Positions 2,970 to 46,692 of a stretch of DNA of 64,000 nt are shown here, in pieces; position 1 is the stretch's first letter; every line of letters begins with the position of its first letter. Source of the DNA: Cyanobacteria bacterium RYN_339 (GTDB taxonomy: Bacteria > Cyanobacteriota > Sericytochromatia > S15B-MN24 > JAQBPE01). Location of the stretch: NCBI GenBank assembly GCA_028287685.1, contig JAQBPE010000490.1:4642-68641 (forward strand), written 5' to 3'. The notes below the pieces were generated by a model. The model worked only from the letters and a program-made list of their open reading frames with translations, was not told where the DNA came from and did no database searches. The position numbers and the translations under genes are program-made.

Positions 2970-4702
<1,733 letters not shown>

Positions 4703-5733: not shown

Positions 5734-7170
5734 ATGCGGCGGATGCTGGCTAGCTTGGCGGCGGCGGCCATGCTGGCAGCCTGCGGGAGCCAGGGCAGCA
5801 CCGGGCCGGGCGCGGTGGCCACGGCCCGCCCGGGTGCGACGCCGGTCCCCGTGTTGGCGGGCCCGCTGGTGCGCATGCGTGCCGCCGTCTTCGGCACCCC
5901 GCCCACCCGCGCGCTGATCGGCTCGAACGCGGCGCCCGGCGCCAACGCGGGCTTCACGTTGGCGCTGGGCGACCAGGCCGCCTACCACGTCCAGCGGGCC
6001 CAAGCCGAGGCCCGCGCGCTGGCAGGCCTGCCGGCGCCGGCCCCCCACTACGCGCTGGCCCAGACCCACGCCGTGGGCGAGACCCAGCCGTTCTGGGTCT
6101 TCACCGACGACACCCCCGGCTCCGAGGCCGAGGTCCAGGTGCAGGCGACGCTGGCGGCGGTGGGCCAGCACTGCTACGTCTGGAACGACCCGGCCGGCAA
6201 TTCCAGCCCGCACGCCACGGCGCTGCTGGCCGCGCGGATCCGCGAGATCGCGGACACCTTCGACGCCCAGATCTACCCAACCGACACGCGCCTCTTCGGC
6301 TCGGAGGCCAACCCCGGCGTGGATGGCGACCCGCGCATCCACATCCTGATCAGCCCGGCCGTCAGCCAGGGCGGCGGCGGCACCACGCTGGGCTACTTCT
6401 CGCGCCGCGACGCCTACCCGGCGAACCCCAACGGCCGGGCCATCATGCAGCACAGCAACGCCAAGGAGCTGATCAACGTCGCCACGCGCATCGTGCTGAC
6501 GGGCAGCCAGGAAGACTACCTGGGCACGCTCGCCCACGAGTTCGAGCACATGATCAACTTCAACCAGAAGGTGCTGCTGGGCAAGAACGCCGTCGGCGAG
6601 GACCTCTGGATCGACGAAGGCATGGCCATGTACGCCCTGGAGGCCAACGGCTACGGCTTGCGCGGCGGCGGGCGGGTGTTGCTCAACCACGTGCGCGATT
6701 TCCAGGCCCAGCCGGAGACCTACTCGCTGAACGAGTGGGACGCCAACCCGCACGGCATCGGCTACGGCCCGGTCTACCTGTTCATGGTCTATGTGGCTGA
6801 CCGCTTCGGCGAGGGCATCCTGCACGAGATCGTCTCGTCGCCCCAAATCGGCTTCCCCAACCTGGAGGCCCGGCTCAACGCCCACGGCAGCCGTTTCAGC
6901 GACCTGTTCGCCGACTGGGCCGCCGCCAACGTCGTGGACCATGTGCCGGGCATGCCGCCGACGCTGACGTACAAGCTGATCGACATGCATGGCAGCTACG
7001 GCGGCACGCCGCTGACGGGGTTCTACGGCAACAGCGTGGCGGAGACCGGCATCTCGAACCTATCGCTGCGGCCATGTTCGCTCTTCTACGCCGAGCTGCC
7101 GAGCGGTGTGGGGCTGCCGGCCTTCAAGGTGGGCGCCGGCGTGACGGTGGAGCCGCCCCTGGGTCAGTAG
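5734..7170 (+). CDS. Secreted zinc metallopeptidase lipoprotein (HExxH; possibly M30/hyicolysin-like)
   Basis: GGAGGAGGA Shine-Dalgarno, lipobox MLAACG, zinc motif GTLAHEFEHMINFN. Confidence 0.75.
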   Translation: MRRMLASLAAAAMLAACGSQGSTGPGAVATARPGATPVPVLAGPLVRMRAAVFGTPPTRALIGSNAAPGANAGFTLALGDQAAYHVQRAQAEARALAGLPAPAPHYALAQTHAVGETQPFWVFTDDTPGSEAEVQVQATLAAVGQHCYVWNDPAGNSSPHATALLAARIREIADTFDAQIYPTDTRLFGSEANPGVDGDPRIHILISPAVSQGGGGTTLGYFSRRDAYPANPNGRAIMQHSNAKELINVATRIVLTGSQEDYLGTLAHEFEHMINFNQKVLLGKNAVGEDLWIDEGMAMYALEANGYGLRGGGRVLLNHVRDFQAQPETYSLNEWDANPHGIGYGPVYLFMVYVADRFGEGILHEIVSSPQIGFPNLEARLNAHGSRFSDLFADWAAANVVDHVPGMPPTLTYKLIDMHGSYGGTPLTGFYGNSVAETGISNLSLRPCSLFYAELPSGVGLPAFKVGAGVTVEPPLGQ

Positions 7171-13504: not shown

Positions 13505-14344
13505 ATGACCATGCCTGCCTGGGAAGACGACCTGCGCCGCTGGCTGGCCGATCAGCCCGCCGCCCCCGCCCCGATCGAGGAGCCCGTCCGGCCGCCCAAC
13601 TGGAAGGCGGAGCTGCTGCGCGAGGCCAACTTCGGCTGGGCGCCCGAAGCCCCGCCCGCGGCGCCACCGGCGGTCGAAACCCCGGTCATCCCCGCCTACA
13701 TCCCCCCGCGCCGCGACCTGCCGCGCCCCTACTTCACCCGCCACGGCTACGAGCCGGGCCAGAAGCCGCCTTCCAAGGCCGCCATGCAGGACCTGATCCA
13801 GCAGGTCTACGGCGCCACCACCCCCGGCCTCATCTACCGCATGGTGGCGGACACGCCGCTGTTCGGCGCGCTCGACACCTGGCGCGACGGCGACCTCCAC
13901 CACAACCACAAGCTGCTGCGCATCCTCTTCGACCGCATCTCCGCCCAGCTGGGCGACGCCTACGGCTTCAAGGCCGCTCCGCTGGGCAAGCTCGACCACT
14001 CCAAGCACTTCCTGGGCTACTACGCCTACGCGGAGCAGGCGATCTTCCTGTCGGCGGCCCACCTCACGGACCACCCCGCCCACGCCGTCAACACGATCGC
14101 CCACGAGCAGGCCCACCGGCTGCAAGACCTGCTGGTGCAAGCCGTCACCTACCGCCGCAAGCTCTCGCCGCCGGAGCGCAGCCTGGCGCTCTGGTGGTAC
14201 GACGAGCGCACCTACGACCACCGCACCCACCCAGCCGAATACCACCACAGCCTCAAGGAATGGCACGCCCGCCAGGTGGGCAATTCGGTGGCGGCTGGCC
14301 TGGGCCGCGTCTTCGGCTGGCCGACCGAACTATCTAATCTGTGA
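13505..14344 (+). CDS. Hypothetical HExxH protein with no signal peptide (putative zincin-like)
   Basis: Single HExxH in the context AVNTIAHEQAHRLQDLL; Pro-rich N-terminal third; GC3-rich codon usage along the whole ORF. Confidence 0.7.
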   Translation: MTMPAWEDDLRRWLADQPAAPAPIEEPVRPPNWKAELLREANFGWAPEAPPAAPPAVETPVIPAYIPPRRDLPRPYFTRHGYEPGQKPPSKAAMQDLIQQVYGATTPGLIYRMVADTPLFGALDTWRDGDLHHNHKLLRILFDRISAQLGDAYGFKAAPLGKLDHSKHFLGYYAYAEQAIFLSAAHLTDHPAHAVNTIAHEQAHRLQDLLVQAVTYRRKLSPPERSLALWWYDERTYDHRTHPAEYHHSLKEWHARQVGNSVAAGLGRVFGWPTELSNL

Positions 14345-14402
14345 AACCCGAGTTAACCTGGCTGCGTAATTCATGCAACGAAGGCCCCTTAGGCTAGGAA
14401 CC

Positions 14403-15350
14403 ATGAAGAAGCTCCTCCCCCTCCTGTGCACCCTCGCCCTGGCGGGCTGTCAGCAGACCCTGACGCTGCCGTCCGCCACCGTGCTCGCCAGCGACTCGCT
14501 GGGCGGCCTGGCTTCGAGCGTCGCGGCCCATGCGTCCGTGGAGGCCGTCGCGCCCCTGGCGTTCGTGCTGACGCCCGAGTCGGCCGGCTTCTTGCAGGCC
14601 CTGACGACCACGGCGGAGCCCCAGCGCATCGCCCTGGCCAACCGCCTGAAGGCGGACAGCACCATCACCAGCGCCATCACGAACTGGAGCCGCGCGGGCG
14701 CCGCCGGCCGCCTGGCCGTGCTGCAGCGCGTGGCGACGATCGAGGGCGAGGTCATGCACTGCCAGGTCCCCACCGTGAAGGAGGAAGCCAGCACCACCGC
14801 GCCCTCCGGCATGTTGGCCTTCTTCCAGGCGGAGTCGGGCGGCCTCGGCGAGATCACGATCTACTCCAACGCGATCGCCTCCGGCGGCGGCTACCTGGCC
14901 CTCTCGATGGTGATCCACGAGATGCGCCACGCGGTGCAGTACCAGCTGGTGTCTGGCGACCAAACCAAGCTGACGGCCGACGAGAAGACGCTCGCCACCG
15001 GCTACCGCACGGCCTGGGAGACGGTCAACGCGCTGGGCGGCGAGAGCAAGCTGAGCTACGGCGACTACGTGCACCTGGCCGTGGAGTTCGACGCCTTCCA
15101 GGCCGGCAACCAGGTGGCCACGCTCATGTCGGGTGGCACCTTCGACCAGCGCGGCAGCGGCTTCGTCGACACCCAGTACGTCACCGCCGGCACGCCCAAC
15201 CTGGACCTCACGACCATGCTGGGCAACTTCACCACCAGCGAGCTCACGGGCGCCGTCAACCTGGCCCAGGCCAAGGCCGAGCCCGCGCGCAGCCCGGTCG
15301 TCTCGCGCCAGCGCCCCGTCGTCACGCGCGGCGGCCGGGCGGGGCGTTAA
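14403..15350 (+). CDS. Hypothetical HExxH lipoprotein (putative zincin-like)
   Basis: Signal and lipobox MKKLLPLLCTLALAGC; HExxH in LSMVIHEMRHAVQYQL. The ORF track starts at 14373; I prefer ATG 14403. Confidence 0.75.
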   Translation: MKKLLPLLCTLALAGCQQTLTLPSATVLASDSLGGLASSVAAHASVEAVAPLAFVLTPESAGFLQALTTTAEPQRIALANRLKADSTITSAITNWSRAGAAGRLAVLQRVATIEGEVMHCQVPTVKEEASTTAPSGMLAFFQAESGGLGEITIYSNAIASGGGYLALSMVIHEMRHAVQYQLVSGDQTKLTADEKTLATGYRTAWETVNALGGESKLSYGDYVHLAVEFDAFQAGNQVATLMSGGTFDQRGSGFVDTQYVTAGTPNLDLTTMLGNFTTSELTGAVNLAQAKAEPARSPVVSRQRPVVTRGGRAGR

Positions 15351-16405: not shown

Positions 16406-17824
16406 GTGTATGCGCTCCTGATCGGTGTCCTGCTGGCGGCCGTGGCCACTGCCCCGCCGGGCCCAACGGCGGAGTTACAACAGCGCGCGGCGCAGAACGA
16501 CCCGGTCGCGATGTACACCCTGGGCGACCAGCTTTGTCGGCAGGGAGATTGGGCGAATGGCGAAGGTTGGATCGCGCGCGCGGGGCGGCTTGGCAACGTC
16601 TCCGCATGCCTCTGGCTGGCGGACCGCTACGATCGTCGCAACTCGCGAGGGGTCTCGTCCAGGTGGCTCAAGGCTGCGGCGGAGGGGGGCAGTCGGCCCG
16701 CAATCGTAGCCTGGGCGAACCGGCTTGTTCTGGGGCAGGGCGTCCCGCGGGCTTACACCACGGCGGTGGCGCTGCTGGAACCCCTGGCCGCTGGCGGCGA
16801 TTGGGACGCCGTGGAGGCACTGGCCGACGCACGGAAGCGCCCTCTCTCACCCCCTCGGTCCGAGGCCCGCTTCAGGGCAGCCCTCGAGGCCGCGCAGCGC
16901 TCCGAGGCGGCGGGCGATAGCGCGCTCGCTTGGCGACTTTACCGTCGGCTGGGCGAATGGATCTTGGCGGACGCTCGCGGCCTCACCGCGGAGATCCCGC
17001 GGCTGGGCACCCCTTTCGTGCCGCTGCGCCTGGCATCCGCGCTCTCGGCGTTGGAGGCCGAGGCGGGCAATGGCTCCGGTGCCGCTTGCTACGTCCGCGC
17101 CATGGTGGCCCTCAATGGCCTGTGGGGCCCGGAAGATCCTGCCCAGGCGGAGCGTTGGCTGGAGCGCGGCGCCATGTTGCGCGACCCTGCATGCGGCAGC
17201 CTCCTGGCCGACCGGCGCGCCGCGACCGATGGCCAGAAGGGGGCCCTGGCCCGATATCGCCACCTCTTCGACGGCAACATCCTGAACACCTACGACCCCG
17301 CTGCAGGGGATGCCGCCACCGCGGCCTTCCTCCATGCCGTGGATCGGATGACCGCCGAGAGCTTCGATCGGCAAGACCTTTGGGGCGAGCATGATCTCGG
17401 GCTGGTGCAGGACCTGGCCTCGGCCAAGTCCTTCTTCACCTCGCTTCATCTGCCGCCGGATCGCCTGGCGCGCCTGGTGGACGGCGACGCCGACACGCTG
17501 CCGCCCGGGTACTTGCAGGCCCAGGGGCTCGGGTCGCTGTTGGAGCGGAAGGCCGCTTATGCGGACGATCCCGCCGTGGCCCATAAATTCCTGATGGAGA
17601 GCGCCGCCCAGGGAACACGCAGTGCCCAATACAGGGTGGGGCTGGAGTTGGTGGAGCGTCCCGTGTCCGCCACGACCGGCCTGGCGTACCTGGAGCTGGC
17701 AGCGGCCCAGGACTACCGGCCGGCATCCCGGATCTTGGATGCCACTGAAGCCCGCCTCGGGCCGGCCACCGTGGCGGCGGCGCAGGCCCAGGCCGGGACT
17801 TGGTGGGAAGCCGCCTTCCGTTAG
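16406..17824 (+). CDS. Sel1-like repeat (SLR/TPR-family) protein, exported
   Basis: Signal-like MYALLIGVLLAAVATA; repeated SLR pattern (A.YTLGDQL..G ... W...AA..G...A...LA). Confidence 0.85.
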   Translation: MYALLIGVLLAAVATAPPGPTAELQQRAAQNDPVAMYTLGDQLCRQGDWANGEGWIARAGRLGNVSACLWLADRYDRRNSRGVSSRWLKAAAEGGSRPAIVAWANRLVLGQGVPRAYTTAVALLEPLAAGGDWDAVEALADARKRPLSPPRSEARFRAALEAAQRSEAAGDSALAWRLYRRLGEWILADARGLTAEIPRLGTPFVPLRLASALSALEAEAGNGSGAACYVRAMVALNGLWGPEDPAQAERWLERGAMLRDPACGSLLADRRAATDGQKGALARYRHLFDGNILNTYDPAAGDAATAAFLHAVDRMTAESFDRQDLWGEHDLGLVQDLASAKSFFTSLHLPPDRLARLVDGDADTLPPGYLQAQGLGSLLERKAAYADDPAVAHKFLMESAAQGTRSAQYRVGLELVERPVSATTGLAYLELAAAQDYRPASRILDATEARLGPATVAAAQAQAGTWWEAAFR

Positions 17825-17827
17825 CCC

Positions 17828-19348
17828 CTACCCGCAGTTGGTGCCAATCCCCCAAGAGGAGTGAGCCTCCGGGTGGGCCGACCACCAAGCCGCGGCGTCT
17901 AGCCGGGCTTTGGTCAGCAGGGCCGGCGACAGCAGCTTGGCCAGCCGATCTAGCGCGGGCTTGGCGCAAGGATGGTGGTTCCGGCCTGCAATGTCATACC
18001 AGGTCGCCGCGCCCACCAGGTCTTGCTGCCTTTCGAGGTCGTTGGCCCACCGGAGCTCCGCCACGGGGTTGCCGGCCTCCACGGCGATCAGCAGCCAGCG
18101 TCGGGCAAGCTCCTCGTCCTTCGGCAAGCCCCAGCCGCGCTCGTAGCAGTCCGCCAAGTCGGCGGCGTAGCTCATCCTCCGCTCGCCCTTGCGGTTGGCA
18201 AGCGCCTTGAGCCACTTCACGCAGCCCAGGACGTTGCGGGGCACTCCCCCGTCCCCTTGCTTGTAGGCAAGGTACAACGTCGCCATGGCTTGCTCGTCCC
18301 CATGCGAGGCGGCGGTTTCCAGGACCGGCGCCGCGTGCTTGGGGTCGCCCGTCCGCAGCAGGTGCTCGCCGTACTTCCGGTTGGCCACGGGGTCACCGCC
18401 GGCGATCGCCAACCGGAACAACTTGTCCGCCTCGTCCGGCAGGCGAGGCATCGTGGTCCCTCTGGCCAACTCCTCCGCCACAGCGACCTTGGTCGCCACA
18501 TCGCCGTTGGCCGCCGCCAGCAGGAACCACTTCAGCGCGGGCGACGCGTAGCTCGGCTTGCCGTCTGCCGAATACGTGGCCTTGCGTACGGCTTCGCAAT
18601 CGCGATCCACGATCCAGCTGCTGATGCGGAGCTGTGCGACCGCCAGGTCGGGCAGCGCCAGGCGCTTGGCGATAGCGCCAAGGGCTGCGCCGACCTGGGC
18701 ACCCCCTACCTCGGCGCAGCCATACTGGAAGTAGGCCTCGGCCAGCTCGGCCTTGCCGGCCCCGGGCTTGCCAAGGTGCTGGGCCAGCAAGATGCGCGCT
18801 GGCACGACGTTGGCCTCCGCGGCTTGTTTGAGGTAGTTCATGGCCGTTGCCAAGTCTTTGGCGGCGGCACCCGCATGCAGCAGGCCACGCGCAACGCGCA
18901 GGCTGGCATCCGGGTCGCCGTGGTCGGCCGCTTGCCGCCACAGCGTCGCCGCGATCGGCTTGGCGCCGGGCCCGGCCGCACCGGCCTCCACCAAGGTCGC
19001 CAACTTGGCCAATGCGGTGCGCTCCCCGCCCAAGGCCGCCAGCTCGTACCACTTGAGCGCCAGGGCAGGGTTCCTGGGCAGCCCCATCCCCGAAGCGTAG
19101 TGCGCCGCCAACTCGGCCTGGGCGTCGGCCGAACCATGCTCGGCCGCGCGTCGGATCCAGGCCAACGCGTTGGCCCGATCGCCGCGTTCCCACAGCTCCA
19201 GGCCCAGTTCCAACTGGCGTCGGGGGTCACCGGCCTTGGCTTCGGCTTGGATCATCTCGAACGTGTCCGGTGGCCAGGCCGCTAACGCCGGGCCGGCGCC
19301 CATTGCCACGAGGGCCAGCAGCACGATCGAAGTCCGAACCGGGAGCAT
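17828..19348 (-). CDS. Sel1-like repeat protein, exported (last gene of the caspase operon)
   Basis: Signal MLPVRTSIVLLALVAMGAGPALA; many SLR units (e.g. AQAELAAHYASGMGLPRNPALALKWYELAA). Its ATG overlaps the upstream stop by 1 nt (TGATG at 19346-19350). Confidence 0.85.
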   Translation of the reverse strand: MLPVRTSIVLLALVAMGAGPALAAWPPDTFEMIQAEAKAGDPRRQLELGLELWERGDRANALAWIRRAAEHGSADAQAELAAHYASGMGLPRNPALALKWYELAALGGERTALAKLATLVEAGAAGPGAKPIAATLWRQAADHGDPDASLRVARGLLHAGAAAKDLATAMNYLKQAAEANVVPARILLAQHLGKPGAGKAELAEAYFQYGCAEVGGAQVGAALGAIAKRLALPDLAVAQLRISSWIVDRDCEAVRKATYSADGKPSYASPALKWFLLAAANGDVATKVAVAEELARGTTMPRLPDEADKLFRLAIAGGDPVANRKYGEHLLRTGDPKHAAPVLETAASHGDEQAMATLYLAYKQGDGGVPRNVLGCVKWLKALANRKGERRMSYAADLADCYERGWGLPKDEELARRWLLIAVEAGNPVAELRWANDLERQQDLVGAATWYDIAGRNHHPCAKPALDRLAKLLSPALLTKARLDAAAWWSAHPEAHSSWGIGTNCG

Positions 19349-19947
19349 CAGGGCGTTTCCAGGCGCTTGCGCACGCGCTCCAACGCCTCGCGGGCCTTGG
19401 CGTCGGCCTGGACCTGCTCGATGCGGGCGGTCTCGTCGACCACCTGGCTCTTGGCACGGTCATATTCCGCCTTGGGCACCACCACCAGGAGCATGACGTT
19501 GTAGCTGGAAGCCACGCCGTCGTCGGTCACGGTCTCCACGCGTTCCCAGTAACGCTCCATCGGCATCATCCCGCGGATCTTGATGCGGTCGGTGCTGGCG
19601 CTCAGCGCGGATTCGATGGCCTGGCCCAGCGGGCTGCCGGCGGCGAGGCTGTTGGAGCCACTGGTGGCTGTCGAGAACTCGCGCTGGAAGGTCTCTTGGA
19701 TCGAGCTTGCCACCACCTTCTTGGCCTGGTACTCGGCCTGTTCCTCGCCGAGGGCGAGATCGCGAACGGCGGCCACGGTGCCCACGAAGTAGAGCTTGCC
19801 GTCCTTCTCCATGAAGCGCTTGTCGGCCCAGTCGGGCTTGCGGGACGAGGTCTCCACGACCTTGCTGGAACCCTTGGCGGGTTGCTGGGCGAAGCAGCCA
19901 CCCGTTAACAAGGCCGCGGCGAGGACAAGGGCTAAGGAGTTGCGCAT
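19348..19947 (-). CDS. LPP20-like lipoprotein
   Basis: Lipobox ALLTGGC; LPP20/FlgO-like pattern YFVGTVAAVRDLALGEEQAEYQAKKVVASSIQETF. The call rests on pattern recall only. Confidence 0.65.
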   Translation of the reverse strand: MRNSLALVLAAALLTGGCFAQQPAKGSSKVVETSSRKPDWADKRFMEKDGKLYFVGTVAAVRDLALGEEQAEYQAKKVVASSIQETFQREFSTATSGSNSLAAGSPLGQAIESALSASTDRIKIRGMMPMERYWERVETVTDDGVASSYNVMLLVVVPKAEYDRAKSQVVDETARIEQVQADAKAREALERVRKRLETP

Positions 19948-19961
19948 GGGGATTCCTCCGT

Positions 19962-20786
19962 TTAGGGGGTGGGAACGCGTTTGGATGCCAGGACCCGGTA
20001 TTCCGTGGTAGCTTCGGCCCGCTCGCCTGCGGGGATGGCGACGAGCCAGCGGTAAAGACCTGCCAGTCCCAGGCTGCCGGCTTTGGCTTCGGGGGGGACA
20101 ACGGGGTGGCGTAGCGCGACCACCTTGATGGCTTCGACGTCCACGCCATGGCCGGGCAGCGGGCGTGGCGTGAGCTTGAAGGGAGCGCCTGCGCCCGGTA
20201 GCACCAGGGGCGCGTTGATTTCCAGGCGTTCGAGCGGGCGGTAGGCGTTCGGGTAGATCTGATAGACCTTGCCGTCGGCCGCGAGGTTGAAGATGAGTGG
20301 GTAACAGGCCTCCGTCGCCTTGACCTGGAGCGTGAGCGCGTCGCCTTCGTAGAAAGCGTCCCGATCGAGGCTCAGGCCTACGTGGAAGGCGGGGTCGCCG
20401 ACCTCGTCCCGGGCGACCTCGGCCCGCAGGCGGACGGTTAACCGGGTGATGGGCGGCTCCTTGGGCCCCACCGGTACGGCAACGGTCTCCCAGCGCAGGA
20501 TTTCCTCGCGCACGATCCGTCCCGAGGCAACCGACCGGGTTTCGCGGAACAGGTCCAGCAGGCCGGTTTGGGAACGCACACTGTAGGCGCTGTCCTCGAT
20601 CGTAACCCCCGCCCAGCCCTCGACGGCACGCCGCCTGGCGGTTGCCAGCGCGGCGGCCTGGGCCCGGTCCATCGAGATATCACCGGCCAGCGTGGCGGTG
20701 CCCTCGGTCTCGAGCCAGCGTTCTTCGGCCGCCTCGGCCGGCGAGGCAGACGCAAGGAGCAGCAGCACCGCGATCGCCCTCCTCAT
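19962..20786 (-). CDS. Exported protein: LPP20-like N-terminal half plus DUF4384-like C-terminal half
   Basis: Signal MRRAIAVLLLLASASPAEA. N-half GDISMDRAQAAALATARRRAVEGWAGVTI. C-half YEGDALTLQVKATEACYPLIFNLAADGKVYQIYPN...L.INAPLVLPG matches the DUF4384 pattern that accompanies bacterial caspases. 4-nt ATGA overlap with the caspase gene. Confidence 0.7.
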   Translation of the reverse strand: MRRAIAVLLLLASASPAEAAEERWLETEGTATLAGDISMDRAQAAALATARRRAVEGWAGVTIEDSAYSVRSQTGLLDLFRETRSVASGRIVREEILRWETVAVPVGPKEPPITRLTVRLRAEVARDEVGDPAFHVGLSLDRDAFYEGDALTLQVKATEACYPLIFNLAADGKVYQIYPNAYRPLERLEINAPLVLPGAGAPFKLTPRPLPGHGVDVEAIKVVALRHPVVPPEAKAGSLGLAGLYRWLVAIPAGERAEATTEYRVLASKRVPTP

Positions 20787-23365
20787 GGCAGCGTTACCAG
20801 CACGCGCTCGTCGTTCCCACTCACCATCGGCGTTTGTTCCTGGTTGGCGCGGCGCGCTTCCCTGGCCACGTTGCCGGTCACGTAGGCCTTGAGCTCACCC
20901 ACCGTAACCTGGTGATCGTGGTTCGCGTCGGCCTCGCCTTGCAACCCCTTGAGCATGAAGTACGTGAACAGCCCGTGGTGCTTCGCCGCATAGCCCGTGC
21001 TCGTCTGGGAGCCGGCGGCCGCCGCGAAGACCGTGAGGCCAGCCGGCACCGCCTCCGCGTTCGTCTCGATGAACAGGGGCCGGAGGTTCGCCACGAGCGG
21101 CCGGGCCTGGTCGGTCCGGTTCGACTGGCCGCTGAAACACGAGTCCAGCATGACGGTGACGGAGCGCGCATGCAGCCGCGCCAGCGCGTCATAGGCCGTC
21201 GCCAACGAGTAGCATGACGTGGAGGGATAGGACGGGTTGCCGTCGAAAGGCACAAGGAACGCGCTCTTGGTCGCCGCATCCGGTGCGCCATGGCCGGCGA
21301 AGTAAACGTACAGGTCGGACTTGTCCTTCTCCACCCACCGCGCCAGCTGGCCCTCCAGGGCCGTGCGGATGTTGCCGCCGGTGGCCTGCTCATCCGTCAG
21401 CACGATGGCGTTCTCACGCGGGACGCCCAGCGCCCGCTCGCAGAAGCCGCGGAAGGCTGCGGCGTCCCGCCGGGCATAGGTCGCTTCGGGCAACTGGCCG
21501 TTGTAGCGTTCGATGCCGATCACCACCGCGAAAGCGTTGGGGTTTGGCGCCGCCGCGGGCCCCTTGATCGCCAGGTCGTCTTCCTCCGGAGCTGGTGCCA
21601 CGCTTGGTGCGGTCGCTTCCACCACGCGGTCGACGCTGGTGGGCGCCGCGCGGTCAAGCGTGACCTGGATCGGGGCGGTCACGCCGAACTCTGGATGCGC
21701 CTCGCTAACGACGATCTTGATCGGCAGCTGTTGCGGGCCGTCGTAGCGGTTCACCACCAGGATCGAGAAGCGCGCCTCCTTGCTGGCGCCGGGTGAGAGG
21801 TCTCCCAGCTCGATCGTCTCGTCCCCCGTGGGCTTGATGCGGGCGTCACCCAGCTGCAGCTTCGCCACCACCTGGTGCGCCAGGCCGGCGCCACCATTCA
21901 CGACTTGCACCCGCAGGTCGAGCTGCTCGCCTCGCTCCACCACGCCGTTCCCGTTGGCGTCCTCGATGCTCGGCCCGCGGATCGCCAGGGCCGGCTGGGC
22001 GAACCGGTGGGTCGCAAAGGTGGTCTTCATCAGCGGCGCATCGAACCCGAAGGCGTCCTCCAGGGCGATCTGAACGGTTGCCTTGCCTTCGACGAGATCC
22101 GTGCGGCCTTTCACCGGGACGATGGCTTTGCGGGTCTCGCCAGGCGCCAGGTCACCGATCGCCACCACCAACGGCACGCTTAGCCCGGCGGAGACGCCGC
22201 CCGCCTCGCAGGCCGCCCGCAACTGGGTCGCCTTGCCTTGGCCAACGTTTTGGATGGTCAGCTCGATCGAGGCCGCCTCGTCTGCCTCCAGCACCCCGTT
22301 GCCCGAGGCGTCCTTGAAGGCCGCAACGGCCTTCAGGAGCGGGGGCGCCTTCGGGCGCTCGGCCAGCAAGCCACCAGCGGGTGGCCCATGCCACCCGTAC
22401 CGATCGTCCACCATGCCGTCGTCCCGCGCCAACACGAAGGCGTTGGTCCCCGCCAGGAAGTGGGGCAGGTCGGCAGAGCCCGCGCCGGGCTGGCCGCTGT
22501 TCCAGGCCACCAGGTTGGCCGTGGCGTCTTGCTCCAGGCCCTGGAGGGGGGGTGTGGCGATGACGCCGCTTCCGTTCTGCGCGATCAAGTTGCCGATCAC
22601 GTTGGCGGCGCCCGTGGTGCTCGACGAGATGCCGGCTTCCGCGTTGCCGAGGATCGTGTTGTGCCGCAAGGTCGGCGCGGCCTGGTGGACCAGCAGGACC
22701 CCGAACTTGCCGTTCTCGCGGCAAAGGTTGTCTTCCGCGGTGCCTCTGCCCCGCCCGAAGTAGGCGATCCCTGCAAAGTGGTTTTTCTGGAGGACGTTCT
22801 GCCGCAAGGTCGGGGCGGCGTCATCCACGATGGCGATGCCATGCAAAATGCACCCCACGACCTCGCTACCCGTTACGCTGCCGTGGGCGTGGCCGGCAAA
22901 GCGGATCCCGATTTGCCCGCCGCCCTGGACCTTGACCCCGGCGATCGCCACGTCGCTGGACCCGCCCACCTGGACCGCCGTGCCGTTGGTCCAGAACTTG
23001 CAGCCACGCACGGTGGCCTTGGCGTCCACGAGCTCGATGGCGTCGCCCGGCGCAATGATGCTCAGATCCTCGATCACGACGTTCTCGATGCCCACACCGC
23101 GGATCACCGTCCCGTTCGACCAGTTTAGGCTGCCGCCGTCCCGCCCGCGCAAGGTGATGCCGGACTTCAGGGCCACCTGCTCCACGTGCGGGCCATGCAC
23201 CTCGATCACGTCGCCAGGGGTGGCCCTGGTGATCGCGCCCTGGACCGATTCCATCATCCCGACCGTGATGGGCAGGCGGCTTGTGCCGGCGCGCGCCGCG
23301 TTGCCGGGAAGCACCAACAGCGACGCAAGGACCAGGGGCAGCGTCAATTGAGGACGAGAGCGCAC
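20783..23365 (-). CDS. Exported multidomain orthocaspase: parallel beta-helix repeats, two CARDB/Ig-like modules, C-terminal peptidase C14 (caspase) domain
   Basis: GTG 23365 is preceded by GGAGG at -6 (the track starts at TTG 23392). Signal VRSRPQLTLPLVLASLLVLPGNAARA. PbH1-like repeats (G..I.....V.I.D..I) over about 22490-23275. Caspase block AFAVVIGIERY ... LYVYFAGHG ... VMLDSCFSG has the His/Cys dyad. DANHDHQVTVGELKAYV tail. Confidence 0.9.
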   Translation of the reverse strand: MRSRPQLTLPLVLASLLVLPGNAARAGTSRLPITVGMMESVQGAITRATPGDVIEVHGPHVEQVALKSGITLRGRDGGSLNWSNGTVIRGVGIENVVIEDLSIIAPGDAIELVDAKATVRGCKFWTNGTAVQVGGSSDVAIAGVKVQGGGQIGIRFAGHAHGSVTGSEVVGCILHGIAIVDDAAPTLRQNVLQKNHFAGIAYFGRGRGTAEDNLCRENGKFGVLLVHQAAPTLRHNTILGNAEAGISSSTTGAANVIGNLIAQNGSGVIATPPLQGLEQDATANLVAWNSGQPGAGSADLPHFLAGTNAFVLARDDGMVDDRYGWHGPPAGGLLAERPKAPPLLKAVAAFKDASGNGVLEADEAASIELTIQNVGQGKATQLRAACEAGGVSAGLSVPLVVAIGDLAPGETRKAIVPVKGRTDLVEGKATVQIALEDAFGFDAPLMKTTFATHRFAQPALAIRGPSIEDANGNGVVERGEQLDLRVQVVNGGAGLAHQVVAKLQLGDARIKPTGDETIELGDLSPGASKEARFSILVVNRYDGPQQLPIKIVVSEAHPEFGVTAPIQVTLDRAAPTSVDRVVEATAPSVAPAPEEDDLAIKGPAAAPNPNAFAVVIGIERYNGQLPEATYARRDAAAFRGFCERALGVPRENAIVLTDEQATGGNIRTALEGQLARWVEKDKSDLYVYFAGHGAPDAATKSAFLVPFDGNPSYPSTSCYSLATAYDALARLHARSVTVMLDSCFSGQSNRTDQARPLVANLRPLFIETNAEAVPAGLTVFAAAAGSQTSTGYAAKHHGLFTYFMLKGLQGEADANHDHQVTVGELKAYVTGNVAREARRANQEQTPMVSGNDERVLVTLP

Positions 23366-23411
23366 TGCCAACCTCCACGAGCAAACAGACAATCCTTCGG
23401 GATATACCCGA

Positions 23412-25316
23412 CTATATCTGTACTTTCATCGGTACCATCTTGCCGCTCGGGCTGGGAACACCCCCGTATTTGGCAAGAAACCCCGCAACGCGGGCCCTTG
23501 ACTGCACCAACTGGGCGGGGTCCAGCTTGGGGCGGAGGTCGGTTGCGGCCTTCAGGCACATCTGGTCGCTGTCCGCGCCCATCGCGAAGTAGGCATAGGC
23601 ATCCGCGGGCGTTTCCGCCAGCTGACCGAGGAAGTACATGGCGTGCGAAACGCCATGGGTGGCGGCGATCTCGTAGCATTCCCGCGCGCGGGCCGGATCC
23701 TTGGGCACGTCCTTGCCGTTCAAGGCCAACGACGCGGCCGTGAGCGCTCCGGTACCGTCCCCACCTTTGGCGGCCATATAGGACCACCGGAAGGCCGTCG
23801 GGCGGTTGAGCTCCACGCCCATGTTGCCATGACAAAACGCGTAGCCCAGGATCCCTTGGGCACGCGCGTTCCCGCCTTCGGCAAGCGCGGTCAACTCGGG
23901 CAAGGCATCTGCGATCGGCCGGGCTTGGTAAGCCAACGCGAGCGTATCGGCGGCCTCTTTGTTGCCGCTTCGGTATGCCAGCAGGCTCCACTTCCCGGCC
24001 TGGGCCATGTCCGATGGGTAGCCGGGCATGTAGTTGTAGGCCCGCGCCAGGCGGAGCATCGCCTTGGAGTTGCCAGCCTGTGCCGCTAGCAATGCGTAGC
24101 CGAACCAGGCCGGACGTTCGACCTTTCCGTCCGGGCCGTAGGCCGGGGTCTCCTTAACGCCCTCTGGCGGGTGCATTTCCAGCGTTTCTGCAACTTCGGA
24201 CGCCGCCACAGCCAGTTGTTCCGCCGGCATCCGCTGCTGCAATGCCAAGCGCAGGGGACCAGCCGACCGATCGCCGCGGGCCTGGGCGTATGCCAACATC
24301 TGGAAGCCCTTGACCGCGTCCGTGGCGCCCCCCAAGAGCTCGCCGGCCAGCGCCTGGGCCTCGACCAGGCCCGCGTCTGCGGCCTCCTTCGCAAGCCGCA
24401 AGGCCTCCTTGGGGCTGTGCTCCACGGCCTCGCCCTTCGCGTACAGCCGTGCCAGCCCCAGCTTGGCAAGCGGGAGATCCATCGACTCGTAGTAGAAGGA
24501 AGCGGCGCGAACCGCGTCACGCGGGATCCCCTCGCCTCGGTCGTAGATCAGGCCGGCCTGTAAGGCGGCCTCCCGATTGCCACGGAGAGGCTCCAGCAGC
24601 GCCAGGGCCTTCACGACATCGCGCTTCCCGCCAATCCCGCGCGCATACAGCATGCCGAGCCGCGAAGCTGCTTCGGTTCCCCAGCGGGGGTCTTGAAGCG
24701 CCTGCTCGTACAGCTTCGCGGCCTTTGCCGGGTCAGGCGCCGTGCCGCGGCCGTCTTCGAACATGGCGGCCAGGCAGCCCATGGCCAGCGCGTTCCCCCG
24801 CTCCGCAGCTTCTTGATACCAGGCCAGCGCCAGGGCCGGGTCGGCAGTCATCCCCTGGCCATGCTCGGCCATGTAGCCGGCCAACGCGCTGCCAGCTGGG
24901 TATTTGAGGCTGGCGGCAGCCTTGAAGGCGGCCAGCGCAGCCTGATCGTCGTGGGGATAGCCTTGCCATCCGCAAGCATAGTAGCTGCCGAGCGTAATGA
25001 AGCCCCGGCCATCCCCCGCCTGACCTGCCTTGCGCAACCAGGCTAGGCCATCGGCCTGGACCGCGGGGGGCGTGGCCGTGGAGAGCGCGGAGCTGCAATG
25101 GTAGCAACCAAGCCTGTACATTGCGCTGGCATCCCCAGCCAGTGCCTTGGCTTGGACGGCGTCGTAACCGGCGTTGAAATCGAGGTTCGCGAGGTCGGAA
25201 ATGACCAGACCGAACGGGCGATCGCCGAATGGCGCCGCGACAGCGGGCGAGGCCAGTGCCAGCAACGGCATGGCGACCAGGATGATGTGCAGGAGTTCGG
25301 AACGGAACTTGGGCAT
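23412..25316 (-). CDS. Sel1-like repeat protein, exported (first gene of the caspase operon)
   Basis: Signal LLHIILVAMPLLALASPAVA; at least 10 SLR units (e.g. GDASAMYRLGCYH, GNALAMGCLAAMFEDGRGTAPDPAKAAKLYEQA). Confidence 0.85.
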   Translation of the reverse strand: MPKFRSELLHIILVAMPLLALASPAVAAPFGDRPFGLVISDLANLDFNAGYDAVQAKALAGDASAMYRLGCYHCSSALSTATPPAVQADGLAWLRKAGQAGDGRGFITLGSYYACGWQGYPHDDQAALAAFKAAASLKYPAGSALAGYMAEHGQGMTADPALALAWYQEAAERGNALAMGCLAAMFEDGRGTAPDPAKAAKLYEQALQDPRWGTEAASRLGMLYARGIGGKRDVVKALALLEPLRGNREAALQAGLIYDRGEGIPRDAVRAASFYYESMDLPLAKLGLARLYAKGEAVEHSPKEALRLAKEAADAGLVEAQALAGELLGGATDAVKGFQMLAYAQARGDRSAGPLRLALQQRMPAEQLAVAASEVAETLEMHPPEGVKETPAYGPDGKVERPAWFGYALLAAQAGNSKAMLRLARAYNYMPGYPSDMAQAGKWSLLAYRSGNKEAADTLALAYQARPIADALPELTALAEGGNARAQGILGYAFCHGNMGVELNRPTAFRWSYMAAKGGDGTGALTAASLALNGKDVPKDPARARECYEIAATHGVSHAMYFLGQLAETPADAYAYFAMGADSDQMCLKAATDLRPKLDPAQLVQSRARVAGFLAKYGGVPSPSGKMVPMKVQI

Positions 25317-25434
25317 AGGCTGCTTGGAAGCATACCCTCAACCGGAAAGATCGTCCCCATGTCTTATGGTTGTAGTCTGGTGGTCTACTGGTTCACCAGA
25401 TGTCGAGGCACGCGGCGTTTGCTATGATCCACCC

Positions 25435-25881
25435 ATGACCATCACCATCAAACGCCTTGCTCCCGGCGACGAGCCCATCCTCCAAACCCTGGCCGCCGAA
25501 GACGCCGACTTCGACCTCGACGGCCGCAGCGAACCCCTGAAGCCGCTAACGGCAGAGCAAGCGCACCGCTACCTCTCGGACCCCGCAGTGCTCAACTGGG
25601 CCGCCATGGACGGCGACACCCTGCTGGGCTTCCTCTACTGCCTGGTCGTCCCCCTGCGTTCCGACGACGCCCAGGAGCTGCTGCTCTACGAAATCGGCGT
25701 GCGCAGCCAATGGCGCCGCAAGGGCGTCGGCCGCGCCCTGCTCGACCACATGGAGCGCTGGATGAAGGAGAACGCCATCAAGACCGTCTGGGTCCTGGCG
25801 GACAACCCCACGGCGGTGGACTTCTACCGGGGGTGCGGGTTTGGTGTGGAGGATGAGCAGCCGGTCTACCTGACCCGCTAG
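25435..25881 (+). CDS. GNAT-family N-acetyltransferase
   Basis: Motif A YEIGVRSQWRRKGVGRALLDHM ... FYRGCGF. ATG 25435 chosen inside the longer track ORF (25174). Confidence 0.9.
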   Translation: MTITIKRLAPGDEPILQTLAAEDADFDLDGRSEPLKPLTAEQAHRYLSDPAVLNWAAMDGDTLLGFLYCLVVPLRSDDAQELLLYEIGVRSQWRRKGVGRALLDHMERWMKENAIKTVWVLADNPTAVDFYRGCGFGVEDEQPVYLTR

Positions 25882-25882
25882 C

Positions 25883-27439
25883 TTACTCCAGCGGCCCCAC
25901 GGCCTCTTCGACCGCGGCCACCAGGCTGCCATCCTCGATCGTCTCGCGCAGGCGGCGGATGTCGTCCGACAGCACGCGGTCGTCGTCCAGGTACGGCACC
26001 ACCGTGCGCACGAAGCGGTGCGCGGCGGCCACGCCCTTGCCCGGCGCCATCTTCGGGCGCAGGTCGATGCCCTGGGCGGCGCACATCAGCTCGATGGCGA
26101 GCACGTTCATGGCGTTCTCCAGCACCACGCCCAGCTTGCGGCCGGCGGTGGTGCCCATCGAGACGTGGTCCTCCTGGCCGGCGGAGGTGGGGATGGAGTC
26201 GACGCTGGCGGGGTGGGCGTGGACCTTGTTCTCCGACACCAGCGCGGCGGCGGTGTACTGGGCCACCATCAGGCCCGAGTTCAGCCCGGGCTTGGTGGTC
26301 AGGAAGGTGGGCAGGCCGTTGGAGAGCGCCGGGTTGACCATGCGCTCCACGCGGCGCTCGGAGATGTTCGCGAGCTCGGAAATGGCGATCGCCAGGAAAT
26401 CCAGCGGCAGCGCCAGCGGCTGGCCATGGAAGTGCCCGGCGGAGATGGCGTCCTCGCGGTCCGCGAAGATGAGGGGATTGTCCGTCACGGAGTTGATCTC
26501 GATCTGGAAGACCCCGCGCGCGAACGTCAGCGCGTCGCGCGTGGCGCCGTGGACCTGGGGCGCGCAGCGCAGGCTGTAGCCGTCCTGCACCTGGCCGCAG
26601 TCCTTGTGAGACTGCATCATCTCCGACCCGGCCACCAGGCGCGTCAGGTTGCGCGCGGAGGCCATCTGGCCGACGTGGGGGCGTAACAAATGCACGGCCG
26701 ACTGGAAGGGGGCCTGGGAGCCCAGCAGGGCCTCCACGGTGGCGGCGCAGGCGATGTCTGCCACCTTGGCCAGGTTGCGGGCCTGTTCAAGGGCCAGGCA
26801 GCCCAGCGCGCCCATGGCCTGTGTGCCGTTGACCAGCGCCAGGCCTTCCTTGGCAGCCAGCTCGATCGGCTTCAATTCGGCGGCTTCGAGCGCGTCGGCG
26901 CCGGAAAGCACCATGCCGCGGTACTCCGCCTTGCCCATGCCGATCAGCACCAGCGCGAGGTGCGACAGGGGCGCCAGGTCGCCGCTGGCGCCGACGCTGC
27001 CCTGGCAAGGGATCACGGGGTGGACGCCGCGGTTGAGCATCTCCGTGAGCAGTTCCACCACCTCCGGCCGGATGCCGGAGAAGCCCTTCACCAGGGCGTT
27101 GATGCGCAAGAGCATCATGGCGCGCACAATAGGCGTCGAGAAGGGCACGCCCACACCCGCCGCGTGGCTCATGACCAGGTTGCGTTGGAGCGCGGCCACC
27201 TCGTGGTGCTCGATCTTGCGGTCCTTCATGAAGCCGAAGCCGGTGGTGATGCCATAGACGACGCGGTCTTCGGCCAGCATCTTGTCCACCACGGCGCGCG
27301 AGCGCTTCATGGCGGCGACGCAGGACGACGGCACGTGCACCGGCACGCGGCGGCGGGCCACCAGGTGGACGTCGAAGATGCTGAGGTCGCGGCCGTTGAC
27401 GGGGATGCGGGCGACGTTACTGCCGATGGTTTCGGGCAT
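25883..27439 (-). CDS. hutH: Histidine ammonia-lyase
   Basis: MIO-forming Ala-Ser-Gly in GSVGASGDLAPLSH; the full-length aromatic ammonia-lyase pattern is present. Confidence 0.95.
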   Translation of the reverse strand: MPETIGSNVARIPVNGRDLSIFDVHLVARRRVPVHVPSSCVAAMKRSRAVVDKMLAEDRVVYGITTGFGFMKDRKIEHHEVAALQRNLVMSHAAGVGVPFSTPIVRAMMLLRINALVKGFSGIRPEVVELLTEMLNRGVHPVIPCQGSVGASGDLAPLSHLALVLIGMGKAEYRGMVLSGADALEAAELKPIELAAKEGLALVNGTQAMGALGCLALEQARNLAKVADIACAATVEALLGSQAPFQSAVHLLRPHVGQMASARNLTRLVAGSEMMQSHKDCGQVQDGYSLRCAPQVHGATRDALTFARGVFQIEINSVTDNPLIFADREDAISAGHFHGQPLALPLDFLAIAISELANISERRVERMVNPALSNGLPTFLTTKPGLNSGLMVAQYTAAALVSENKVHAHPASVDSIPTSAGQEDHVSMGTTAGRKLGVVLENAMNVLAIELMCAAQGIDLRPKMAPGKGVAAAHRFVRTVVPYLDDDRVLSDDIRRLRETIEDGSLVAAVEEAVGPLE

Positions 27440-27443
27440 GGGC

Positions 27444-28085
27444 TTACCGCGCGATGTCCAGGCCGTGGGCCCGGACCTGAGGCCAGAGGTCGCTGCGCAT
27501 CGCGTCGAGGGCTTCCCAAAGGGCGTCGCACTGCTCGCGCTGTTCCTCCACCCAGGCCTCGTCCTTGATGCTGCCCAGGTTGATGGCGGCGTTCAACAGC
27601 GCGCCCTCCGCGCCGGCGCAGGCCAGCAGCACGGCCACGGCGGCGTCGGTGCAGGCGTTCTTGTTGCCGATGCCCAGCAGCCGGTGGGCCAGCCGCGCGG
27701 TGTCGAGGCAAGCCTGGGCCACGCCCATCGGCGCGAGCGTGGCGCCCTTCAGCCCGGCCTGCATGGCCAGCTTGCGGGCTTCCTTCTCCTCGTCCGTGGC
27801 CTTGGGCAAGGCCATCGCCGTCATCACGGCCTCGAAGCTGGCGGCGTCTTCGGCCACGGCGCGCGCGAGCTTGCCTTGCAGGCCCTCGGCCTGCTGGCCC
27901 AGCTTGGCGGCCTCTTGGGAGGCCTCCTCGTAGCCCTTCTTGCCCACCGTCAGGCCCGCGACCATGCGCGCGAGCGCGGCGGCCAGGGAGCCGGCGAAGG
28001 CGCTGGCGCTGCCGCCGCCGGGGGTGGGGTCGTTGGCGGCGAAGCGCTCGAGCAGCTGGTGGGCGGGCAGGTCGGTGAAGCTCAT
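27444..28085 (-). CDS. Formiminotetrahydrofolate cyclodeaminase / methenyl-THF cyclohydrolase family protein (FTCD C-domain homolog)
   Basis: Hallmark N-terminus FAANDPTPGGGSASAFAGSLAAALARMV; all-helical, 213 aa. Confidence 0.85.
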   Translation of the reverse strand: MSFTDLPAHQLLERFAANDPTPGGGSASAFAGSLAAALARMVAGLTVGKKGYEEASQEAAKLGQQAEGLQGKLARAVAEDAASFEAVMTAMALPKATDEEKEARKLAMQAGLKGATLAPMGVAQACLDTARLAHRLLGIGNKNACTDAAVAVLLACAGAEGALLNAAINLGSIKDEAWVEEQREQCDALWEALDAMRSDLWPQVRAHGLDIAR

Positions 28086-28086
28086 C

Positions 28087-28989
28087 TTACGCGGTCGTCC
28101 GGATCTTGTTTTCCAGGACCATCGCCGGGTTATAGCCTTCGACCTGCAGGTAGTAGGCCGCCGTTTCCAGCAGCGCGTCTTGCGGCACCAGGCCCACGAT
28201 CTCCGAGCCGGCGACCTGCACGCCCCAGCGCGCGGCCTCGATCTTGATCAGCTCGAACACGCGATAGATGGGGTTCTTCTTGTAGTTCACGAGGTTCATC
28301 GAGACCTGCACCTGGTTGCGCTCCTCGGTGTAGAGCCCCATGCCCTTCACGTAGGCCATCCCGCCGGAGCTGCCGCGCACGGCCTTGGCGATCTCGTTGG
28401 CGATCTTCAAGTCCGAGGTGTGCAGGTAGACGTTGTAGGCAATCAGCGCTTCGCGCGCGCCGATGGCGGTGGCACCCAGGTGCGGGTGCGGGTAATTGTT
28501 GCCGAAGTCCGGCGCCCACTCGGGCTTGGCCAGCTTGTCCTGCAGGCCCTCGAATTGGCCCTTGCGCACGTCGGCCAGGTTCTTGCGGTGGGGCGCGGAG
28601 GCGGCCTCCTCGTACAAGACCACGGGCACGTTGAACTTCTCGGCGACCAGCTTCGCCACGTCCTTGGCGAGTGCCACGCAGTCCGCCATCGTGCAGTCCG
28701 CGATGGGGATGAAGGGCACCACGTCGACGGCGCCCATGCGCGGGTGGCCGCCCTGGTGGGTGGTCAGGTCGATGTGCTTGGACACCTCCGTGAAGAGCGT
28801 GTCCAGCGCCGCCTTGAGCACGGCGGGCTCGCCCAGGAAGGTCAGCACGGAGCGGTTGTGGTCCGGATCGGAGGTCTGGTCGAGCCACTTCAGGCCCGGC
28901 GTGGCTTTCACGGCCTCCACGATCTGGTTGACGACGTCCAGGCGGCGCCCCTCGGAGATGTTGGGGACGCACTCGATCAGGGCGGGCAT
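28087..28989 (-). CDS. Glutamate formiminotransferase (FTCD N-domain homolog)
   Basis: Hallmark N-terminus LIECVPNISEGRR ... DPDHNRSVLTFLG; 300 aa. Confidence 0.9.
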   Translation of the reverse strand: MPALIECVPNISEGRRLDVVNQIVEAVKATPGLKWLDQTSDPDHNRSVLTFLGEPAVLKAALDTLFTEVSKHIDLTTHQGGHPRMGAVDVVPFIPIADCTMADCVALAKDVAKLVAEKFNVPVVLYEEAASAPHRKNLADVRKGQFEGLQDKLAKPEWAPDFGNNYPHPHLGATAIGAREALIAYNVYLHTSDLKIANEIAKAVRGSSGGMAYVKGMGLYTEERNQVQVSMNLVNYKKNPIYRVFELIKIEAARWGVQVAGSEIVGLVPQDALLETAAYYLQVEGYNPAMVLENKIRTTA

Positions 28990-46522: not shown

Positions 46523-46692
46523 GCCCCCAGCGTACCCGGTCCCGCGCCGCCCGTCACCCCGGACCCGCATGCCTGGTGCGACATCCGCTGGATTATGGGA
46601 ATTTTGGGGTCTTGTGTTATTATGTCAAATAGTCTTGTGGATCTTGTTAAGTCGCGCCGGGCTCGCTTCTACGGGATCTTCCAGTAATACGC

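Follow-up and report, generated by a model that had tools for sequence, protein, structure and literature searches.

Work on bacterial caspase homologues has almost all been concerned with cytoplasmic proteases of cell death or defence. The closest described relatives of the enzyme reported here are the orthocaspases or bacterial metacaspases (MEROPS C14B-like), such as MaOC1 of Microcystis and the enzymes with solved structures Yca1 (4F6O), AtMC4 (6W8S), TbMCA2 (4AFP) and GSU0716 (3BIJ). Those that have been characterised are cytoplasmic. The accessory domains described for prokaryotic metacaspases include Sel1, WD40 and FGE-sulfatase (PMC3501461), DUF4384 is likewise listed in surveys (PMC3501461; PMC7475262), and N-terminal helices of some of these proteins were earlier suspected to be signal peptides (PMC3501461). 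In this paper we describe a gene cluster in a stretch of 64,000 nucleotides from Cyanobacteria bacterium RYN_339 (the window), in which a predicted exported caspase-family protease is encoded together with a two-domain DUF4384 protein, a small lipoprotein and Sel1-repeat proteins. The enzyme shares with metacaspases the C14 domain, the GHG and D-x-C-x-S-G motifs with their His/Cys dyad, and conserved Asp residues at the putative S1-pocket positions. It differs from them in its predicted export, in its beta-helix and its spacer of two CARDB domains, and in having dedicated exported partners, the FlgT_N-like/DUF4384 protein and the lipoprotein, in a conserved putative operon. The locus and thousands of related clusters indicate a large branch of the caspase family that works outside the cytoplasm with a dedicated DUF4384 partner whose translation is coupled to that of the caspase. 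A full-text literature search found no paper on an operon in which an exported caspase is joined by a DUF4384 partner and an LPP20-like lipoprotein, in agreement with the first-pass annotation of this DNA, which knew of no functional description of such an operon.

The cluster consists of five minus-strand genes. They encode, in the order of transcription, an exported Sel1-repeat protein of 634 amino acids (23412..25316), the exported caspase-family protease of 860 amino acids (20783..23365), the exported two-domain DUF4384 protein of 274 amino acids (19962..20786), the small lipoprotein of 199 amino acids (19348..19947) and a second exported Sel1-repeat protein of 506 amino acids (17828..19348). 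A sixth gene, for a Sel1-like protein of 472 amino acids (16406..17824, plus strand), converges on the last of these, with three nucleotides between the two stop codons (17825-17827). This arrangement had been proposed in the first-pass annotation, and direct reading reproduced its coordinates and every junction. The open reading frame of the caspase spans 20783-23392, and the likelier start is the GTG at 23365, which has a GGAGG 6 nucleotides upstream and leaves a gap of 46 nucleotides to the first Sel1 gene; the public gene call (P0001) likewise gives 860 amino acids. The caspase stop and the start of the DUF4384 gene overlap as ATGA (20783-20786), a gap of 14 nucleotides with a GGAGG precedes the lipoprotein ATG at 19947, and the lipoprotein stop and the start of the second Sel1 gene form TGATG, with base 19348 in common. 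All six reading frames show a coding pattern in their G+C content at third codon positions (GC3), which is 0.80-0.89 in a genome of 70% G+C.

The geometry is that of an operon, with one strand and short or overlapping junctions. Terminator-like sites in the cluster were not above chance (5 found, 7.2 expected), and a promoter scan found no sigma-70-like promoter inside it. The only sizeable non-coding stretch upstream is a divergent region of 118 nucleotides (25317..25434), flanked on one side by the first Sel1 gene and on the other by a GNAT gene recognised by a Pfam match (25435-25881, plus strand). We presume this to be the promoter region; the sigma-70 consensus was not found in it.

From its N-terminus the caspase protein carries a signal peptide, a right-handed beta-helix, two CARDB domains and the C14 protease. 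The Beta_helix/NosD region, of the CASH type (residues 130-269; 22559..22978, on the minus strand as are all features of this protein), scores above the Pfam cut-offs for both families (Beta_helix 84.8 bits, E 5.6e-24; NosD 57.1 bits, E 8.3e-15). It is followed at residues about 340-575 (21641..22348) by two tandem CARDB-like immunoglobulin (Ig) domains, which match CARDB above its cut-off (32.5 bits) and align at residues 363-571 with positions 564-771 of TIGR03900. This pair forms the start of a widely conserved C-terminal module, which ends with the Peptidase_C14 domain (PF00656, residues 612-850; 20816..21532; 43.8 bits, cut-off 21.4). Pfam profile searches recovered all of these domains, and also the DUF4384 and Sel1 domains described below, as they had been assigned in the first-pass annotation.

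The codons and the family alignment place the catalytic residues at His692 in FAGHGAP (21290-21292) and Cys743 in LDSCFSG (21137-21139), and two putative S1-pocket residues at Asp634 (21464-21466) and at Asp741 (21143-21145), two residues before the catalytic Cys. Among 54 sequences H692 and D741 are invariant and C743 and D634 are at least 90% conserved, and all four are invariant in a set of 21 relatives. When a profile of these 21 relatives was compared with the PDB, the closest structures were metacaspase-1, -4 and -9 and MALT1, and the alignment pairs the ARRDA motif containing D634 with the C-x-N-D-A motif of metacaspases. The metacaspases were reached only by this profile, as a PDB search with the single caspase domain gave nothing useful. 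Judged from its sequence, the protease is well supported as a C14 enzyme of the metacaspase type, in which the His692/Cys743 dyad is intact. As the two conserved Asp residues match positions which we take, from the TbMCA2 structure, to be the metacaspase S1 pocket, cleavage after Arg or Lys can reasonably be predicted. One of the relatives that carry a beta-helix (P0031) has Ser at the position of the catalytic Cys and is a pseudo-caspase.

Export was called by a heuristic, the maximum hydrophobicity of any 10-residue segment on the Kyte-Doolittle scale, with four cytoplasmic proteins as controls. All six proteins have a hydrophobic N-terminal segment (maximum 2.7-3.1, compared with at most 2.0 in the controls), and a basic n-region precedes it in five; the N-terminus of the 472-residue protein has no basic residues. 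The predicted signals are MPKFRSELLHIILVAMPLLALASPAVA/AP in the 634-residue Sel1 protein and VRSRPQLTLPLVLASLLVLPGNAARA/GTS in the caspase (23288..23365, minus strand), and that of the DUF4384 protein ends in SASPAEA/AE. The 199-residue protein has the lipobox LLTGGC with the Cys at position 18. G17 and C18 are invariant across nine family sequences and the relatives mostly have L-S/A/T-G-C lipoboxes; lipidation itself is predicted from sequence. By this measure the earlier placement of an export signal or a lipobox on every product holds. Genes for an AcrB/MdtB-like RND transporter (most like MdtB, E 2.5e-132; 43418-46570, minus strand) and for a MexJ/MexA-like membrane-fusion protein (48334-49698, minus strand) occur elsewhere in the window and fit a two-membrane envelope.

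The wider family was explored by an exhaustive search with the caspase in 1.84 billion representative proteins, which gave 3,703 matches at E <= 1e-30. Nearly all of the top 150 align at residues about 335-860, the C-terminal 520 residues with the two CARDB domains and C14, and the regions ahead of this module vary from 0 to about 1,000 residues. A hydrophobic N-terminus is present in 114 of the 137 representatives whose sequence begins with Met, and a lipobox-like motif in at least 25, so that export appears to be the norm in this large CARDB-C14 family. The N-terminal domains are diverse: WD40 propellers occur in about 19 of 54 proteins, others have uncharacterised lipoprotein domains, one has 13 Sel1 repeats fused to C14 (P0019) and one a PDZ-S41 fused to CARDB and C14 (P0043). 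The beta-helix of the window protein is shared by only two of 149 representatives (P0016 and P0031).

To look at the genes beside these caspases, we fetched 80 metagenome loci (L011-L090) via caspase motifs alone and used each half of the DUF4384 protein of the window as the query in iterative searches of their open reading frames. A two-domain DUF4384 partner is encoded on the same strand in 11 of the 13 loci with at least 3 kilobases on both flanks, and in 19 of the 27 with flanks of at least 1 kilobase. In 24 of the 80 loci it lies directly adjacent to the caspase gene, several times with an overlap of 4 nucleotides. These partners are 13-46% identical to the window protein, and several are themselves lipoproteins. 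A further representative (P0080) joins both in one polypeptide, with a signal, a FlgT_N-like domain, DUF4384, CARDB and C14. Since the pairing recurs in loci that were selected by the caspase, and also as a fusion, the caspase and the DUF4384 protein evidently form the widely conserved core, a pair met with in many environmental bacteria. What the window's lineage has added to it are the LPP20-like lipoprotein and the Sel1 genes. The pair as a general unit, and export as the apparent norm of the family, are the main points that these comparisons add to the earlier description.

Proteins of the cluster are rare at high identity in the databases we searched, and the lipoprotein is the best conserved of them. 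On a contig of 7.8 kilobases (L001), genes for the caspase, the DUF4384 protein, the lipoprotein and a Sel1 protein follow in the window's order, with identities of 45, 44, 64 and 29%; for the caspase the 45% holds along the whole protein, and gene overlaps recur at the first two junctions. Of the other contigs reached by way of the lipoprotein, four (L003-L006) have the DUF4384, lipoprotein and Sel1 genes, and another (L007) has the caspase, DUF4384 and lipoprotein genes. In L003 an S41 peptidase gene lies downstream of the Sel1 gene, and the matching gene of L004 runs off the contig. A further locus (L002) has the lipoprotein gene, a CARDB-only paralogue, the caspase gene and a convergent DUF4384 gene; the paralogue (L002:805-2865, 686 amino acids) matches the CARDB region and has no C14 match. 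A scan of 185,579 species, each represented by a single genome, found the lipoprotein in only three, one unclassified bacterial metagenome-assembled genome (MAG) and two Candidatus Sericytochromatia MAGs, at 36-46% identity. Two of these loci have enough flank (L008 and L009), and in both the lipoprotein gene is accompanied by DUF4384 and CARDB-caspase genes; in L010, the third, it lies where the contig ends. In L009 the lipoprotein–DUF4384 pair is separated from a second caspase paralogue by a PIN-domain gene (2971-3678).

Taken together, a DUF4384 gene lies beside every lipoprotein relative with enough flank (L001, L002, L003/4, L005/6, L007, L008 and L009), every contig that reaches far enough has a CARDB-caspase gene as well (L001, L002, L007, L008 and L009), and in L001 and L003-L006 the gene after that of the lipoprotein encodes a Sel1 protein. 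The caspase had been expected to be linked to DUF4384, small lipoprotein and Sel1 genes in other genomes, and we find this to be so, with the order kept in L001, a widespread pairing and fusions. The Sel1 genes are a mixed case. Of the three, only the downstream gene was seen to be conserved as a member of the cluster, and the convergent gene was not seen in the related loci. That neither outer Sel1 gene was seen to be conserved is what could be said for the view that these are merely adjacent exported genes without a common function. We give that view almost no credence, as the gene order is kept at 29-64% protein identity, the caspase–DUF4384 pair is kept in 11 of 13 well-flanked loci, and there are gene fusions and overlapping start and stop codons. 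For the core of caspase, DUF4384 protein and lipoprotein, chance adjacency is excluded. The earlier view of closely coupled genes for exported proteins, with a C14 protease of intact active site at their centre, is upheld.

The DUF4384 protein has two domains. Its C-terminal beta-sandwich (20148-20354, minus strand) is a clear Pfam match to DUF4384 (PF14326, 43.6 bits, cut-off 27). The N-terminal alpha/beta domain (20409-20717, minus strand) had been called LPP20-like, but resembles FlgT_N more than LPP20, and this only weakly. The window protein itself scores only 12.4 bits for FlgT_N (cut-off 28.8, E 0.24), but among 23 partner relatives, all of which have DUF4384, seven match FlgT_N (best E 1.6e-4) and only one LPP20. 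The AlphaFold2 (AF2) model consists of a beta-alpha3-beta2 domain of moderate confidence followed by an Ig-like sandwich, with low-confidence stretches at model residues 59-80 and 191-209. The latter spans PFKLTPRPLPGH, basic residues included. A fold search with the model found generic Ig-like domains at low TM-score (best GbpA, E 2.8e-4, TM 0.26), and a PDB sequence search found no useful match.

This low-confidence stretch with basic residues, in the partner of a predicted Arg/Lys-specific protease, raises the question whether the DUF4384 protein might be the specific substrate of the caspase, or an inhibitor that is released by cleavage. Cleavage would then free the FlgT_N-like domain or lift an inhibition, and act as a switch-like envelope signal or release an effector. 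There is a precedent in type III-E CRISPR systems, where the CHAT protease Csx29 cleaves Csx30, and some Csx30 substrates carry a C-terminal DUF4384. The likeness of this Craspase to our cluster is a caspase-like protease with a partner which in some lineages bears DUF4384, and the conserved translational coupling would fit a 1:1 pair of enzyme and partner. However, the linker has no invariant basic residue across the 23 partners, the N-terminal fusion of the partner to the caspase in P0080 is typical of a subunit or an adaptor, and neither a sigma or anti-sigma factor nor anything toxin-like is encoded in the window cluster. We therefore consider this explanation possible but rather improbable. 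The cluster is not a Craspase. That system is cytoplasmic and RNA-guided with a CHAT and not a C14 protease, whereas a signal peptide is carried by the window partner; Pfam scans of the six cluster proteins and ten other window proteins gave no domain of the cas, CHAT or sigma-factor kind, and the cluster has no Csx31.

The lipoprotein is only partly what its earlier LPP20-like label suggested. At the family level the label has some support, as six of nine relatives match LPP20 (best E 2.7e-5), but the window protein is below threshold (PF02169, 13.9 bits, cut-off 25.9, E 0.076) and has no fold match in the PDB. Its AF2 model has a mean predicted local distance difference test score (pLDDT) of 76 and shows a small beta/alpha core with a C-terminal helix of 40 residues. 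A PDB sequence search with the lipoprotein profile gave no useful match. We considered a common origin with the N-terminal domain of the DUF4384 protein, and hhalign found no relationship. A small exported family without a Pfam match (A5, 213-232 amino acids) resembles the lipoprotein in size and layout, and is found immediately next to the caspase or DUF4384 gene in eight loci (L034:277-927, L039:7100-7798, L037:5606-6265, L046, L057, L067, L074 and L089). Here too hhalign gave no relationship (probability 8%), and given both comparisons a common origin of the small partners is unsupported.

Sel1 repeats are clear in the 634-residue protein (115 bits, E 8.7e-34) and above cut-off in the 506-residue protein (71 bits), and these two are 27% identical. 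In the 472-residue protein they score below the cut-off (23.2 bits, cut-off 30.7). The first 135 residues of this protein are 34% identical to residues 21-148 of the 506-residue protein, of which it is evidently a partial paralogue. The fusion of Sel1 repeats to C14 in P0019 supports the link between Sel1 and caspase independently. Residues 353-401 of the 506-residue protein also resemble the SLT_4 transglycosylase family (E 1.6e-4, 21.8 bits, cut-off 27), which is probably a similarity between helical repeats. The match is worth noting, because the known adaptor–protease systems have peptidoglycan-hydrolase substrates.

We tentatively favour, with somewhat more doubt than confidence, the explanation that the cluster encodes an envelope-tethered, adaptor-directed protease complex specific for Arg/Lys. 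The DUF4384 protein would be the dedicated docking or regulatory subunit of the caspase, and in some relatives this part takes the N-terminal position of the caspase polypeptide. The LPP20-like lipoprotein might anchor the assembly to a membrane, which would probably be the outer membrane at its inner face. The choice of ligand or substrate may fall to the interchangeable N-terminal domain, a beta-helix here and WD40, Sel1 or PDZ-S41 in relatives, together with the free Sel1 proteins. The first-pass annotation had proposed an envelope-anchored proteolytic module with Sel1 adaptors, and this model is compatible with everything we found; that some products act as tethers or adaptors, or that the cluster takes part in defence or lysis, is what such a model would suppose.

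A functional analogy may be drawn with NlpI–Prc of Escherichia coli and LbcA–CtpA of Pseudomonas aeruginosa, which are pairs of an outer-membrane TPR adaptor and a periplasmic protease. The likeness would be in a periplasmic protease with TPR/Sel1-type adaptors and a lipoprotein anchor, and S41 is found fused to a CARDB-caspase in P0043 and beside the Sel1 gene in L003. The protease is an S41 serine protease in those systems and a C14 cysteine protease in the window, the Sel1 proteins of the window have no lipoboxes, and no peptidoglycan-hydrolase substrate is evident. The cluster would be an analogue of that class and is not a member of it.

Several points weigh against an adaptor-directed complex as we picture it. 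The analogy with NlpI–Prc is drawn from general background, and the Arg/Lys specificity from a motif alignment and known metacaspase structures. The LPP20 and FlgT_N assignments are weak, the AF2 model of the lipoprotein has no fold match in the PDB at E <= 0.001, and both AF2 models, of the lipoprotein and of the DUF4384 protein, are of monomers and not of complexes. The lipoprotein sequence alone does not decide between sorting to the outer and the inner membrane. The more distant loci L008 and L009 have no Sel1 genes, and of the window's Sel1 genes only the downstream one was seen to be conserved, not the upstream gene of the 634-residue protein or the convergent gene of the 472-residue protein. 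Finally, a protease with a dedicated substrate would fit the same data.

The beta-helix and the CARDB domains raise another question, whether the caspase works on surface or matrix proteins or is a degradative secreted protease. The CASH-type beta-helix would bind polysaccharide (cell wall, exopolysaccharide or prey material), the partners would aid export or attachment, and the task of the caspase would be to mature or trim proteins of the surface or to digest protein outside the cell. Beta_helix/NosD is typical of proteins that bind or process carbohydrates, and CARDB is a cell-adhesion-related Ig domain. Lectin-like Fib_succ_major/FGE-sulfatase proteins are encoded in 21 of the 80 related loci. 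Other clan CD proteases, such as the gingipains and PorU, are secreted or surface-bound. The gingipains, the PorU sortase and the clostripain-like C11 proteases share with the window protein an extracytoplasmic caspase fold and Ig-like accessory domains, but they belong to families C25 and C11, leave the cell by other secretion routes (a C-terminal domain for type IX secretion), and have no DUF4384 or LPP20-like partners. We noticed no secretion-system sorting signal or secretion genes in the cluster, most N-terminal domains of the family bind proteins (WD40) and not glycans, and a simple secreted protease leaves the conserved small periplasmic partners unexplained. Overall we regard such a role as unlikely. 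The Fib_succ_major/FGE-sulfatase proteins have about 300 amino acids and are the commonest other same-strand neighbours (L014, L027, L028 and 18 more loci); they are often present in several copies and may co-occur with DUF4384 partners. Transglutaminase-like proteins and DUF3015 are further recurrent neighbours of the family caspases.

Two or three tandem caspase paralogues are found in many loci (L012, L020, L027, L031, L039, L058, L067, L072, L073 and L088). These tandem copies, and the highly variable sensor-like domains on a constant protease module, would fit an envelope surveillance or anti-phage abortive system, in which exported sensor domains detect an invader or envelope damage and the caspase cleaves envelope targets, leading to lysis or growth arrest. 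Cytoplasmic caspase-like proteases are established defence effectors. The codon composition of the region could also be taken in this sense. Every gene between 15537 and 25881 of the window has a GC3 of 0.80-0.89, compared with 0.92-0.97 for nearly all other window genes, which hints at horizontal acquisition of this block. It comprises a gene for a protein of 159 amino acids without a Pfam match, the convergent Sel1-like gene, the five-gene cluster and the GNAT gene. The repeats around the block are chance-level matches only, and no tRNA or Rfam matches were found in the window, where integrase genes were not specifically looked for. Because flanking repeats, tRNA and Rfam matches are all missing, an island is suggested by nothing but the codon composition.

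Against a defence system speak the missing hallmarks of mobile elements, flanking repeats and tRNA, and the flanks, which hold no recognisable defence genes but histidine-utilisation (hut) genes and the GNAT gene. No gasdermin, pore-former or similar effector was seen. PADLOC-DB 2.0 matched the caspase with its generic caspase model only (PDLC02987, 49.7 bits) and none of the five other proteins, and the cluster is no known PADLOC defence system. We think a surveillance or abortive function quite unlikely, by a shade more so than surface processing. A still more speculative idea, which we regard as something of a long shot, is that a widespread, unrecognised extracytoplasmic caspase system is built around the caspase–DUF4384 pair, as a periplasmic counterpart of the cytoplasmic modules of sensor plus caspase in immunity or signalling. 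Its interchangeable exported sensors (WD40, Sel1, beta-helix or PDZ-S41) would detect envelope-invading or damaged molecules without ATP, and the caspase would then cleave the DUF4384 partner or envelope targets and trigger a response.

The locus gives the family a concrete unit open to testing, made up of the protease, its partner, a lipoprotein and adaptors. DUF4384 may, it suggests, have a role as a caspase-associated module, in line with its presence in some Csx30 proteins, and the locus raises the question whether periplasmic caspases take part in envelope protein turnover, signalling or defence.

One further comparison comes from the weak FlgT_N, LPP20 and MotX matches in the cluster. 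FlgT, FlgP (of the LPP20 family) and MotX (Sel1) of the flagellar outer ring in Vibrio and Campylobacter are periplasmic, outer-membrane-associated structural proteins that occur together. The matches here are far below the family cut-offs, there are no flagellar genes in the cluster, and a protease is central to it. An extracytoplasmic function (ECF) sigma factor is found near metacaspase operons of Myxococcus (PMC3501461), whereas Pfam scans found none near our cluster.

The surroundings of the block are varied. Beyond the GNAT gene, at 25883-28989 (minus strand), are ordinary metabolic neighbours, which by the look of their translations are histidine-utilisation genes for a histidine ammonia-lyase, a cyclodeaminase-like and a glutamate formiminotransferase-like protein. 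On the other side is a gene for an NHL/SGL beta-propeller protein of 919 amino acids with a CarboxypepD_reg domain (7164-9923, minus strand) and, divergent from it, one for a regulator of 993 amino acids with AAA_16 and BTAD (STAND/SARP-like; 10001-12982, plus strand). Between this regulator and the block lie two adjacent plus-strand genes whose products have no Pfam match and an HExxH motif each (13505-14344 with AHEQAH, and 14373-15350 with IHEMRH), the second with a lipobox LALAGC. They may be an uncharacterised pair of metallopeptidases, which is probably outside the caspase block because its GC3 is typical of the host.

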